A program made the position numbers and the translations under genes. The notes beneath the pieces were generated by a model. That model worked only from the letters and a program-made list of their open reading frames with translations, was not told where the DNA came from and searched no databases. From the NCBI GenBank assembly GCA_963733195.1, contig CAVTCR010000086.1, positions 1 to 64,000 on the forward strand: a stretch of 64,000 nt of DNA, in the 5' to 3' direction. Position 1 is the stretch's first letter, and every line of letters starts with the position of its first letter. This document shows positions 19,897-62,051 of the stretch, piece after piece. The stretch is from an uncultured delta proteobacterium (GTDB lineage: Bacteria; Desulfobacterota; Binatia; Bin18).

Positions 19897-22329
19897 TTAC
19901 TTCAGCCCCGCTTTGCGCAACGCGGCAATATGCCGCTCCAACACCGCTGGATCTTTGATCGGCATTCTCTGCTTGTGAACTTCCAGTGAGAACTTGGGAT
20001 TGAGTCGCAGCACTTCGGCGGCTTCCGCCCGCGCCTCGGCAGTTTGGCCTAACTCGCTGTAGACCGCAGCCAGCATGAGATGGGCAGGCAGAATGTTGGG
20101 ATAGCGGCTGAGGTAGCGCTGCAAGGGAGCACGCGCCTCTTCGTAGCGTCCCGGCCACCGCATAGGCAGTGCCGACGCTGGCTAAGTGGGCGTCCACAAC
20201 AAGGGCTTCAGGCGCAGCGCCTGTGCGGCGGCCTCCAGGGCGTCCTCCGACCGGCCCATATGGCTCAGCACCTCCGCCAGAGCCGCATAGCTCCCTGCCT
20301 CGGTAGGAGCAAGGGCCACGGCCCGCTCCATCTCCGCCAGGGCCTGGTCATACTGCTGTTGGTAGAGATAGATCCAGCCCAAGACTATGTGGTTCCAGTG
20401 GAGGGAGTCATGGAGGGCCAGGGCCCGTTGCCCCGCCGCCACTGCCGGCTCCAACGTCTGGGCAGCTGGGCTCTGTTGAGCGACCCACTGCCATAGGTAG
20501 CTGCCAGCCAGGTGAAGGTGGGCATACGATAAAATTGGGGTCCCGGCTGATGGCTTCCTTCAGCGTGGCGATCGCCTCGGCATACCGCCCGGTCATGCGG
20601 TAGGCCCAGCCCAACTAGAATAAGTACCAGGGTGGACAGCGGGGGTTGAGCCGCATCGCCTGCTCCACTGACTGCAGAGCCTCCTCTGGCCGGCCCGCGA
20701 AGTTCAGCACCTCCGCCTGTACGGCATAGCTGTCCGCATAGTTGGGATCGAGAGCGACCGCCCGTTCGCCCTCGGCTATGAGCTTGGTCATACTGCTGTT
20801 TCTGCGGCATAGACGATGCTCAAGAGCGAATGGGCTGTCGGCAGGGAGTCGTCCAGGGCAAGCAGCCTGTTGCGCGAGCGCCAACACGCGCTCCAGGGTC
20901 TGGGGGTCCGCACTCCAGCGAAAGCCCCACTCTATCCAGTAGGTCCACACCCAGCTACGCGTACGCCTCGGCATACTGTGGGTCCAGGGCAATGGCCTTC
21001 TCAAACAGCTGCCGCGCCTGGGCATTGGCCTCTTTCGTGAAGCGGCAATGATACTCCTGCCCGCGCAAGAAGGCATCGTAGGCCTCCAGGTTGTCGGTGT
21101 GTTTGCGCACGACGTACCCTTGCTCTTGCAACGTGAGCTGCAGCTTCAGCGTGGTCACGATCTTCTGCACGATCTCATCTTGGAGCGCGAAGAGGTCTTG
21201 CAGCGGACGGTCGTAGCGCTGCGACCACAGGTGCCCGCCGGTCGTGGTATCAAGTAACTGGGTCACGATCCGGATGTGCTCCCCCGCCTTCTGCACGCTG
21301 CCTTCCAGGACGTAGCGTACGCCCAGTTCTTTCCCCACGTCTTGTATATTCACCGGTTTCCCCTGGTACGTGAAGGCCGTGTTGCGGGCGATGACGAAGA
21401 GGCTGGAGATGCGGGAGAGGTCAGAGGTGAGCACTTCGGTGATCCCGTTGCTGAAGTAGTCCTGCTCGGGATCTTTACTCATGTTGTCGAAGGGCAGGAC
21501 GACGATGGAGGGTTTGTCGGGGAGCGGCAGCGCCGCTGGCGCGGCCTGGGAGCTGGGGGCTAAGGGCTGGGTGCTGGTAGGAAAGGAGAAATAACGGACA
21601 GTGACGAACGTTGCCGCGATGAGCACCAGCCCCGCCAGCAACAGTCCTCCCCTGCGTTTCAGTTGAGCAGCCTTGATGGAGCGTGAGCGCAATCCAGGAC
21701 CCGGTGATTTCCAGATTCCGCTGCGCTTCATCTCCGTTCGTGCTGAGCGTGTCGAAGCACGGCTTGCTCGGCCAGGGTCGCTGCGGCTTCGTCCATCACT
21801 ACCCGATACGTTCGTACCGGCTTGGCGATGTTCTTGACCGTCTGCTCACCCTGATAGTCGTAGTTCAGCGCAAGCTTGTTCTCGACCTGATCGTACACCG
21901 TGCCAGAGATGCAGATCCCACCGGGAACCGCGAGGCTTTCCAACCGCGCGGCGATGTTGACCCCATCGCCATAGAGTCGCTCGCCTTCGACGATCACATC
22001 GCCCAAGTTAATGCCAATGCGAAACTGCATCTGCCGCTGTTCCAGGCAGCTCTGCGTTCTTCTCTTTGAGTGCGTGCTGAATCTCGACTGCGCAGCGCAC
22101 CGCATCGACCACACTGGCGAACTCGGCCAGGAGATTATCTCCAGGCGAATCCACCACTCGCCCACGGTAGCGCTGGATGAGGGAAGAGATCAGGGTACGG
22201 TAGGCGGTGAGGGTGCGGATGGTGGCTTCTTCATCGTCGCCCATGAGACGACTGTAGCCCGCGACATCCGTGCTGAAGATCGCCGCCAGCTTGCGCTGCC
22301 ATCCCGACGGAGGTCGTCTGCTCAGGCAT
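19897..22329 (-). pseudogene. Class III adenylate/guanylate cyclase-TM-TolB-like-TPR protein, multiple frameshifts
   Basis: DVAGYSRLMGDDE, FRIGINLGDV, GDGVNIAARLE, LPDKPSIVVLPF, TPRs, ending LRKAGLK; collinear with intact paralog 59702-61636. Confidence 0.85.
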
Positions 22330-53788: not shown

Positions 53789-54808
53789 TCATCTACGATA
53801 TTCATCCCCACAATCGCCAATCGCTTGATACAAATCGCGTGACTTGCTCACCACCTTCTCGATCTGCGCATGATCTTCAGCATCGAGCGCGAAACCGAAC
53901 GTTCGTGCATTCTCGGCTCGATGCTCGGCAATGCCAAGTCGCGTGCCAACAATCACTCCTCCCACAGCCGGACGATCAAGAATATAGCGCACCGCGACAT
54001 TGGCGATACTCACGTGATGTTTGTCAGCAATCTGTTTAAGGGTAGCGAGGAGTTCTTGAAAAAGACTCCACCCTCCCCACGTATCGATCATCATCTTGTA
54101 TTTTTCCAAGCTAACAGTATTGAGCTCACGTCCACGCGGTTCAGGTTTGCCGAGATACTTCTCGGACAATAGCCCACCGCAAACTGTTCCGTAGGTGAGT
54201 AACTGGATGTTGTGTTCACGACAAAACGGAATCATGGCAATTTCTGGGCGACGATCGACTAGCGAGAATTGCACTTGATTAGAAACAATACGGATACCAT
54301 TGTCAGTGATGATCTTGAGGTGCTCAGTATCGAAGTTGGTGAGCGCCAGGTGACGAATTTTTCCTTCGCTCTGTAATTCCGCCAAGTATTTGAGTGCGTC
54401 GAGGTACCCCGGATCGTCGTATTCCCACCAATGAAATTGGAGAAGATCAAGCGTCGGAACAGCCATACGTCGAAGGGAGACATTGATGGCATTCTCGACA
54501 ATCTGTCGAGTCATGCGTCCAGGCCGTGGTACCCATTTAGTAAAAGCTTGCACGCCGGACCATGCATCTGCTCCACGTGTAGCGATGAGCTGCCGGCGAA
54601 ACTCACCAATGAAATCTTCAGCAGGACCGTAGTGATCGGCGAGATCCCAGGTAGTAAACCCAGCATCGATATAGTCGAACATTTCTTTGATTGCAGCTTT
54701 CGGATCAATGCGACCATGCGCGCCAGACACTTGCCACAAGCCGTTCAGTACACGGCAGATGCGCAGGTCAGGGGTGAGTTGCTGATAACTTTCTACTGGA
54801 AGGGACAT
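53789..54808 (-). CDS. Aldo/keto reductase
   Basis: GLWQVSG, DLADHYG, LDLLQFHWW, SNQVQFS. Confidence 0.92.
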   Translation of the reverse strand: MSLPVESYQQLTPDLRICRVLNGLWQVSGAHGRIDPKAAIKEMFDYIDAGFTTWDLADHYGPAEDFIGEFRRQLIATRGADAWSGVQAFTKWVPRPGRMTRQIVENAINVSLRRMAVPTLDLLQFHWWEYDDPGYLDALKYLAELQSEGKIRHLALTNFDTEHLKIITDNGIRIVSNQVQFSLVDRRPEIAMIPFCREHNIQLLTYGTVCGGLLSEKYLGKPEPRGRELNTVSLEKYKMMIDTWGGWSLFQELLATLKQIADKHHVSIANVAVRYILDRPAVGGVIVGTRLGIAEHRAENARTFGFALDAEDHAQIEKVVSKSRDLYQAIGDCGDEYRR

Positions 54809-54896
54809 AATCGCCTCCTTTCGCAGCCAAAGATAGGCACGTTGACAGCCCAACCGCAAGAATGCCAGACTTGGGCGGCGCAATAGGAGGGACACT

Positions 54897-55988
54897 ATGC
54901 CAGAGACAGCCGAGTTGCGATCACAACGCATCGAAGCCCAAGAAGACGATCCGATTGAACTCCTCTATTCCCGTGGTTTGACCGACGGTCTACCGGTCGT
55001 GCCGCCCACCGAAGCGCGGGTGAGGCGTATGCTTGCAGCCACGGATCGTGATCCACAAGAACTCCTTGGCACCATCGGCCCTAACTATGGTCGTGCAACG
55101 GTCGAAAAGATCGCGATCAATGCGGTCATGGCAGGCTGCCATCCATCGTATTTTCCTACCGTCTTGGCAGTCGTCGAAGCTGCTTGTGAAGACCAATTCT
55201 GCTTGCACGGTATCAACGTGACCACGTTCTCAGCCTCACCGATGATCATCATCAATGGTCCGATTCGCCAGCAGATCGGAGTGAACTGCGGTCATAACGC
55301 GTTAGGTCATGGCTTTCGCGCCAATGCCACCATCGGTCGTGCGCTACGCTTGATGATTATTAATATCGGCGGAGCCAAGCCGCATGAAATCACCAAAGCA
55401 ACAATGGGACACCCTGCACAGTACACATTTTGTGTGGGTGAGAATGAAGAAGAGAGTCCATGGGAACCGTTGCATGTTGAGAAAGGATTTCGGCTAGACC
55501 AAAGCACTGTGACGCTATTCGCTGGTCATTCGCCTTTGCAAATTAACGACCACGCTAGCCGCTGCGCTGAACAACTTGCACTATCACTTGGTTGGACAAT
55601 GGCTGGGTTATGGAATCATAAGAACTTCCCATTGTTTTCAGATACCGTGTTGGTCGTGTGCCCAGAACACGCAAAGACTTTCAAGCAAGATGGCTGGTCG
55701 AAAAACGATCTGCGACAATTCCTTTTTGAAAAGATTCGCCGCCCGTTGCGTGAATTGCGTCCCGGTGTAAATGGTGGTGAAGGCGCTGGGGTCAGTATGC
55801 TGCGGACCGAGAGTAAGACAGATCGTGAACCACCGACTGACGATACGCTTTACCCCAAGTTTGCCAAGGCTGAGACTCTTACTATTATTGTCGCTGGTGG
55901 CACGGCGGGTCGGTTCTCAGCGGCAGTACAGGGCTGGGCAGGCGGCAATGCCGGGAGTAAGATTACCACTAAAGAGATTCATGCATAA
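54897..55988 (+). CDS. Conserved uncharacterised partner of UGSC selenoproteins
   Basis: TDGLPVVPPT, ATVEKIAINAVMAGC, RANATIGRALRL, ENEEESPW, VCPEHA. Confidence 0.75.
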   Translation: MPETAELRSQRIEAQEDDPIELLYSRGLTDGLPVVPPTEARVRRMLAATDRDPQELLGTIGPNYGRATVEKIAINAVMAGCHPSYFPTVLAVVEAACEDQFCLHGINVTTFSASPMIIINGPIRQQIGVNCGHNALGHGFRANATIGRALRLMIINIGGAKPHEITKATMGHPAQYTFCVGENEEESPWEPLHVEKGFRLDQSTVTLFAGHSPLQINDHASRCAEQLALSLGWTMAGLWNHKNFPLFSDTVLVVCPEHAKTFKQDGWSKNDLRQFLFEKIRRPLRELRPGVNGGEGAGVSMLRTESKTDREPPTDDTLYPKFAKAETLTIIVAGGTAGRFSAAVQGWAGGNAGSKITTKEIHA

Positions 55989-56006
55989 TTTGTAAGGAGG
56001 TGACTC

Positions 56007-56552
56007 ATGGGAGAAATGTTTCTCGATCCTACGGATAAAGTAGAACGAACGCACAAAGTGTTCGCCCCACGGTTGGATACGCTTGAGGGGAAAACTATTG
56101 GCTTGCTCGATATCAGCAAGTCCAAAGGCGTATTCTTCCTCGATCGTGTAGAAGAAATCTTGCGTCAGCAGTACGGTGTCAAAGATGTGCTGCGTCGTAT
56201 GAAACCAACAGTGACGCGTCCTGCTCCACAACCCATCAAGACCGAGTTGCAGGAAAAATGTGACGCCGTCATCGAAGCCCTCAGCGATTGAGGGGCCTGC
56301 ATTTCGTGCAGTTCGCACGATGTTGTCTACTTTGAAGAAAAAGGCATCCCGACCGCGAATGTGACCACCACTGAATTTATCGGTGCTGCCCATGCCCAGT
56401 GTTCTGCTTTCGGCATGGCCCAGTACGAACCGATTCTGGTTCAGCATCCCATTCAGCCAAAGACACAAGAAGAAGTCCGTGCACTGGCGGATCAAGTGAT
56501 TGATCAGGTCATTGGCAAGCTGCTCAAACAAAAAGTGCAGAAGGCGGCGTAA
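56007..56552 (+). CDS. UGSC-family selenoprotein (Sec at TGA 56289-56291), 181 aa
   Basis: Readthrough gives EALSD-U-GACISCSSHDVVYFEEKGIPTANVTTTEF..., joining ORFs 56007 and 56361 in frame. Confidence 0.85.
56293..56314 (+). promoter_or_regulatory. Candidate SECIS hairpin
   Basis: CTGCA-tttcg-TGCAG stem, extendable by GGG/TTC, immediately 3' of the TGA. Confidence 0.4.
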
Positions 56553-56574: not shown

Positions 56575-56762
56575 ATGCTTCGACTTCGTCCTATGGACTG
56601 ACGCTCAGCACGAACGGCTCAGCCGAAGCTATCAATAATTTCCGTTTGCCCTGAGCGTAGCGAAGCGAAGTCGAAAGGGTCCCACTTGAAACAGAATTCC
56701 TGAACCGGACACGCGTGGCAGCCCGTCATTCCGGGCGAGCACCGCGAGACCCGGAATCCAGG
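56575..56762. repeat. Cluster of REP-like elements
   Basis: GCTTCGAC...GCTCAGCACGAACGG and inverted partner; 56722-56762 matches 61951-61991 with two mismatches. Confidence 0.8.
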
Positions 56763-61777: not shown

Positions 61778-62051
61778 TGTCTTCTGAGGAGCCCTGTGAC
61801 GTTGCTCAGGATAAACACCGCGACGAAGTATCTCTCCCTATCATCCCCACCGAGATTCTTCGCTTCCGCTTCGCTACGACTGCTCAGAAACAAAATGCCG
61901 CCCAGTGCCCCCTGGATTCCAGCTTACGCTGGAATGACGCAGACGACATGCCCGTCATTCCGGGCGCGCACCGCGCGACCCGGAATCCAGGCGCATCCAG
62001 TTTCTGCCTCCATGCTTAGCGCCCCGCGCTATGGACGACTCAGAATGACAC
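61778..62051. repeat. Composite nested palindromic (REP-like) element
   Basis: Same outer scaffold as 23443-23658 with a different inner inverted pair (CCTGGATTCC...GGAATCCAGG). Confidence 0.8.

Follow-up and report, generated by a model that had tools for sequence, protein, structure and literature searches.

Within the window, i.e. the whole stretch of 64,000 nucleotides analysed here, a gene preceded by a partner gene runs across an in-frame TGA and is followed by a long spacer (Table 1). When genetic code table 11 is applied, the ORF starting at ATG 56007 ends at this TGA after 94 codons. Past the TGA, the frame contains no further stop until the TAA, and the GTG ORF 56361-56552 (63 aa) belongs to the same frame and lies inside the read-through. 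Translation of 56007-56552 with TGA as U gives 181 residues and the junction ...IEALSD-U-GAC-ISC-SSHD.... All of this agrees with the preliminary description of this DNA, which had the ORF stopping at TGA 56289, the frame staying open to 56552 and absorbing ORF 56361, and a junction reading D-U-G-A-C-I-S-C-S-S-H-D. It had added that standard callers split the gene, and table 11 does yield two ORFs although a single family domain spans the TGA.

Table 1. Features of the UGSC locus in the window and, in the last two lines, related selenoprotein genes elsewhere in the same genome (G000)
Feature	Position	Strand	Remarks
Partner gene	54897..55988	+	363 aa; 18 bases upstream of the UGSC gene; no named family
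Shine-Dalgarno-like sequence AAGGAGGTG	55994..56002	+	4 bases before ATG 56007; direct sequence reading
UGSC-family selenoprotein gene	56007..56552	+	181 codons including Sec95; TAA 56550-56552; NF041046, PF24696
In-frame TGA, predicted selenocysteine codon (residue 95)	56289..56291	+	column invariant in the alignment; 5/5 copies of this genome
SECIS-type hairpin	56304..56320	+	6-bp stem 56304-56309/56315-56320; loop 56310-56314; compensatory changes in homologues
Possible lower stem extension (this copy only, weak)	56299..56323 (56299-56301/56321-56323)	+	fold prediction
Small GRDB-domain gene past an in-frame TGA, U-P-V-C	G000:C62:33436-34149	-	PF07355
Small GRDB-domain gene past an in-frame TGA, U-G-L-C	G000:C73:107205-108035	+	PF07355

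The read-through protein scores 146.2 bits against the NCBIfam model NF041046 'UGSC family (seleno)protein' (cut-off 125) and 154.9 bits against the Pfam model PF24696 'UGSC' (cut-off 25), the latter over residues 6-172 and hence across the TGA. By sequence comparison, 56007-56552 is a real selenoprotein gene and one more member of the known UGSC family. In the relevant part of the literature of 2007 (PMC1976440), UGSC figures as a selenoprotein of unknown function. The portion of Zhang and Gladyshev (2008, PMC2398784) used here counts 255 forms with Sec and 21 with Cys among the GOS data, and also reports a fusion of UGSC to a domain named Unknown_1. The family is listed without function in the excerpts of a 2022 review and of a 2026 review. 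Within those limits, the literature from 2007 to 2026 assigns it none, as the preliminary description had also held. The gene shares with the 'UGSC-containing protein' of PMC2398784, as presented in the same portion, the Sec at the U-G-x-C column, the Cys at +3, a length of about 180 residues and a SECIS directly after the UGA. It differs from the family in having Ala for Ser at +2, which was found in 1 of the 44 sampled sequences.

This difference had been put forward as a notable 'UGAC variant', a view that does not hold, since the replacement of Ser by Ala affects a position that also accepts Gly or Thr. Of the 44 Sec forms, 37 carry UGSC and four carry UGGC, and UGAC (the 56007 gene), UGTC and UGTS occur once each; position +2 is therefore S (37), G (4), T (2) or A (1), and position +3 is Cys in 43. 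Since UGGC is present both in the nearest paralogue (on C41) and in L067, which at 86% identity is the closest homologue found, the Ala at +2 is a small local change and a trivial variant. The combination of Sec with two Cys, also presented as a feature, fares no better: residue +6 is C in 20 of the 44 forms, and otherwise W (12), S (5), G (4) or A (3). By its distribution, U-x-x-C-x-x-C is a subgroup trait and not a family signature. As for the metal-binding chemistry that had been suggested, nothing in the analysis points that way.

The in-frame TGA and the hairpin that follows it

Each of the five UGSC matches of this genome contains exactly one in-frame TGA. The same holds for 149 of the 150 matches listed in a survey of this genome and 40 relatives. 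UGSC matches occur in 38 of these 41 genomes, and 13 further matches lie beyond the 150. The only listed match without TGA, found in G033, reads ...VVGLGT-C-GSC... and has Cys at the Sec column. The preliminary description had assigned the protein to UGSC, a family with Sec or Cys at this site, and had proposed to look for Cys or TGA at this column in homologues; the scores above both family cut-offs and the 149 TGA and one Cys are in line with it. When 37 read-through proteins were aligned, the Sec column (U95), G96 and F124 proved invariant, and at least 90% of the sequences retain C98. The comparison indicates that TGA 56289 is decoded as selenocysteine and is not an error. An alternative genetic code was also considered and rejected, because TGA is otherwise a normal stop in this genome, where it terminates 1069 of the 2686 frames of at least 300 codons.

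The hairpin that had been noticed after the TGA is confirmed, its pairing being kept by compensation in 44 homologues. It begins 13 nucleotides downstream of the UGA. Its loop carries G56311 and U56312, which are nucleotides 23-24 counting from the U of UGA and correspond to those important for recognition by SelB in the fdhF element of E. coli; they are G-U in 42 of the 44 homologues. For this comparison, 54 nucleotides round the TGA were aligned from 44 Sec-form loci (25, plus 19 of a further 20, the Cys form L048 being left out). Across these loci, pair 27-33 is C-G in 31 and G-C in 12, and pair 25-35 is U-A in 31, A-U in five, G-U in three, G-C in one and U-G in one. Moreover, 80.1% of the stem cells pair, a share that falls to 25-50% if the partner column is shifted. 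At 0.272, the score for covariation exceeds those of all shifted controls and is reached by none of 500 shuffles, the mean of which is 0.121. Seven pairs of the named nine-pair structure change on both sides, as do five of the six pairs of the conserved upper stem, and RNAalifold predicted the inner five pairs independently.

Taken as a single sequence, the 44-nt fold does not stand out (-13.8 kcal/mol, z -1.77), and 13 of 200 shuffles fold as well. The lower stem is poorly kept in homologues; for instance, pair 19-39 is standard in 7 of the 44. The element thus resembles bacterial SECIS elements of the fdhF type in being a short stem-loop soon after the UGA with G and U at 23/24, and differs from them in that the lower stem is not conserved and in that no Rfam model matched when 56150-56450 was scanned at E up to 10. 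It is by comparison among homologues, as for the selenoprotein gene itself, that the SECIS element was established. Since the stem lies in coding sequence, it couples residues +6 and +9: Cys or Trp occurs with His, Ser or Gly with Leu, and Ala with Ala. This coupling explains in part why the 'third Cys' at +6 varies. By the same comparison, UGA 56289-56291 is predicted to be read as Sec95 with the aid of this hairpin, which would present its loop G-U to SelB.

Selenocysteine machinery and competing readings of the TGA

Decoding of this kind relies on selA, selB, selC and selD, which the preliminary description had proposed to look for in the genome. Three parts of this machinery were found in sound form by profile searches. 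selB scores 397.8 bits, above its cut-off, and has no stops; selD scores 375.1 bits, also above its cut-off, and has its own in-frame TGA; the tRNA-Sec (70.7 bits, above cut-off) adjoins selA. The selB and selD genes are adjacent (G000:C81:169199-172166), and SelD is the Sec form. The fourth part stands with a reservation: selA is present (360.9 bits, above cut-off), but is split over frames in the assembly. Compared with the same-genus genome G002, selA, located on C11, has insertions of +1, +1 and +2 bases, that is three frame changes, whereas it is uninterrupted in all five related genomes tested.

These breaks could mean that selA is a pseudogene, that selenocysteine decoding is broken and that the five UGSC genes are recent relics with truncated products. 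Besides the three frame changes in a gene intact in 5/5 relatives, such a reading can draw on a short contig of a related soil organism that lacks two letters at the third selA site. This contig comes from the search for sequencing runs with the selA stretch, in which none of the 24 runs listed contains as much as half of the words of that stretch (best share 0.16); four of these runs gave only short contigs of relatives, the one just mentioned among them. However, all four genes compared in C11:21654-27726 (selA and three others, 23.1-27.7 kb) are broken into two or three frames when set against G002, whereas the genes matched on C28 and C30 keep a single frame. For this reason, the breaks in selA are likely to be assembly errors in this stretch. 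In addition, the five UGSC frames, their hairpins, the TGA-containing frame of selD, selB and the tRNA-Sec are all intact. We therefore consider the loss of selenocysteine decoding unlikely.

It is even less probable, to a degree that we regard as slight, that the TGA is a true stop separating a 94-aa gene and a 63-aa gene that are both expressed. The two table-11 ORFs and the common use of TGA as stop in this genome are what such a reading would predict. Against it, the single Pfam domain runs across the TGA, and the 69 bases from the TGA to GTG 56361 are in frame and encode conserved residues of the family. Furthermore, no Shine-Dalgarno-like sequence was seen by eye before GTG 56361, so that the second piece does not look like the separately initiated gene that the preliminary description had named as an alternative, and the Cys homologue is continuous. 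Finally, a sequencing error for TGC or TGT, which would make the protein a Cys form, can practically be set aside: the assembly does have errors elsewhere, but the known ones are indels and not substitutions, and the TGA recurs in 5/5 paralogues and in 149 of the 150 listed homologues, in independent assemblies and with a SECIS hairpin. A selenoprotein gene read through its TGA hence remains the preferred interpretation of the locus.

The partner gene and the five pairs

At E up to 0.01, neither Pfam nor NCBIfam matched the 363-aa protein encoded upstream of the UGSC gene. Its family is very large, every one of the 8000 candidates scored being a relative. The 120 relatives listed lack precomputed Pfam domains, and where they bear a name it is 'hypothetical protein'; the protein atlas returned only unnamed clusters. 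Its invariant residues include C81, C97, H104, H193 and H258. The AlphaFold2 model of the partner (pLDDT 85.1) found no clear match with Foldseek (best E 1.5e-3, TM 0.23, to a class I fumarate hydratase) or with VIA-align (best Z 4.9 of 48161 chains).

The association with UGSC is constant. In this genome, a homologue of the partner adjoins each of the five UGSC copies; four of these homologues lie upstream of UGSC and one lies downstream. It is also found beside UGSC in 43 of 45 further loci in total, i.e. 24 of 25 loci examined with 1.5-kb flanks and 19 of 20 with 2.5-kb flanks. The downstream copy (G000:C77:20011-20980) falls into two frames, with one HSP at 20011-20679 and the other at 20708-20980. 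Moreover, four loci of G027 (L054-L057) encode in-frame UGSC-partner fusions of 535-590 codons with no stop between the two parts. This genome has 12 UGSC matches in all, and its fused copy L055 carries UGTS, with Ser for Cys at +3. Among 76 longer relatives of the partner (637-2000 residues), 20 have PF24696, 33 have PF07992-type domains, i.e. flavoprotein reductase domains that are thioredoxin-reductase-like, and one has PF00578. The partner may be the Unknown_1 domain of the UGSC fusion of PMC2398784.

The genes on either side of the five pairs all differ. Here, the neighbours are an aldo/keto reductase gene (53789-54931, minus strand) and a cytochrome P450 gene (57003-58382, plus strand), which recur at none of the other four pairs. 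The flanks of these four encode an RNA ligase, an MFS protein, an aminotransferase, a DsbA-like protein, a luciferase-like protein, a PIN protein, a 2-hydroxyacid dehydrogenase and a CoA-transferase. No third conserved gene was found among the 10 flanking genes of the five loci of this genome. Likewise, none of these 10 genes encodes a thioredoxin reductase, and the DsbA-like protein is the only one of its kind.

The 450-nt spacer after the UGSC gene contains a 42-nt palindromic element (56721-56762), a second copy of which lies in the window at 61950-61991. Genome-wide, blastn returned 55 hit rows with this element, itself included, and many of these reach 95-100% identity; the element resembles a REP-type repeat.

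Predicted fold, likeness to selenoprotein B and possible chemistry

The UGSC protein was modelled with AlphaFold2 from 37 sequences (pLDDT 93.2). In the model, a strand-helix order is repeated five times, (beta-alpha)5, whereas the portion of PMC2398784 used here describes the fold of UGSC as 'likely Trx-like'. Foldseek and VIA-align listed flavodoxin, CheY-type receivers, periplasmic binding proteins and SDRs or other Rossmann-type proteins. These matches are to a generic three-layer alpha/beta architecture (Z 9-11), the top value of 11.4 being tied with many. When PDB sequences were searched with the UGSC profile, no match had an E below 0.28. Sec95 is placed between the third strand (87-93) and the third helix (96-111), with the motif at the helix start and Cys98 one turn on. 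Sec95 and Cys98, on the first helical turn, could then close a selenenylsulfide.

Around the Sec, UGSC shows a local profile likeness to the selenoprotein B group (GrdB, GrdF, GrdH and PrdB; PF07355, TIGR01917, TIGR04483), in the order strand, U-x-x-C, helix, E-x-x-G-I-P-T, strand. When the UGSC profile was aligned with a GRDB-like profile by hhalign (21 of 30 extracted genes, Cys being written for Sec in both profiles), the probability was 90.4% (E 1.4e-6) over 74 columns, and the Sec, the Cys and the E-x-x-G-I-P-T motif of one profile fell on those of the other. The U-x-x-C-x-x-C spacing of the 56007 copy is also present in one full-length GrdB relative (L076). Direct matches are faint: the 56007 protein reaches 15.5 bits against TIGR01917 (cut-off 602.2; E 0.0059), over residues 80-125 only, and the Pfam scan did not report PF07355 for it. 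Among 37 UGSC proteins examined at E up to 0.05, TIGR01917 was matched by 20 (best E 1.2e-5), GrdF by 11, TIGR01918 by eight, PrdB by six and GrdH by five. UGSC differs from selenoprotein B in that it lacks the rest of the GRDB domain, lies far below the family cut-offs and aligns over only about 74 columns.

This genome also encodes two small GRDB-domain (PF07355) selenoproteins, with ...LLVPV-U-PVC... on C62 and ...LTPT-U-GLC... on C73, in both of which the PF07355 model ends just before the Sec. Small genes of this kind occur in 34 of the 41 genomes. The C62 copy, at 208 aa versus 280-300 aa in relatives, looks frame-broken after the Sec.

The Sec of GrdB and PrdB acts in reductive C-N cleavage. 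As with UGSC, a second protein works, or is proposed to work, alongside selenoprotein B; by Pfam and NCBIfam, the partner described here resembles neither GrdE nor PrdA, which are pyruvoyl proproteins. Overall, the alignments support a Sec module common to UGSC and GrdB/PrdB, which does not make UGSC a GrdB.

Taken together, we are highly confident that the locus holds one UGSC selenoprotein gene with SECIS-aided insertion of Sec95, the product of which is a probable small subunit acting with the 363-aa partner in redox chemistry. As to how it would act, we infer that Sec95 and Cys98 form a redox-active selenol/thiol pair cycling through a selenenylsulfide, that UGSC and the protein encoded by 54897-55988 probably make up a two-part enzyme, UGSC being its small subunit, and that reducing power would come from thioredoxin or a system of the thioredoxin-reductase type. 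Chemically, UGSC may work much as selenoprotein B does in glycine reductase and D-proline reductase, attacking and reducing a substrate that the partner holds. A broader proposal, which we advance tentatively and would rate at somewhat below an even chance, is that UGSC and its partner are subunits of an undescribed class of selenium-dependent reductases fed by thioredoxin-reductase-type flavoproteins, that the Sec module shares both ancestry and chemistry with selenoprotein B, and that the five pairs are specialised for different substrates.

Both the SECIS element and the partner of this gene are routine for the family, and to the question of the pair's role the locus makes no contribution of its own: the constant partner, the thioredoxin-reductase-like links and the likeness to GrdB/PrdB are seen here once again. 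For annotation, the table-11 ORFs 56007 and 56361 are to be joined as one selenoprotein gene, and the same merging applies to the four other UGSC copies of the genome. If the broader proposal is true, the five paralogous pairs, each in a different neighbourhood, would be substrate-specialised versions of the enzyme.
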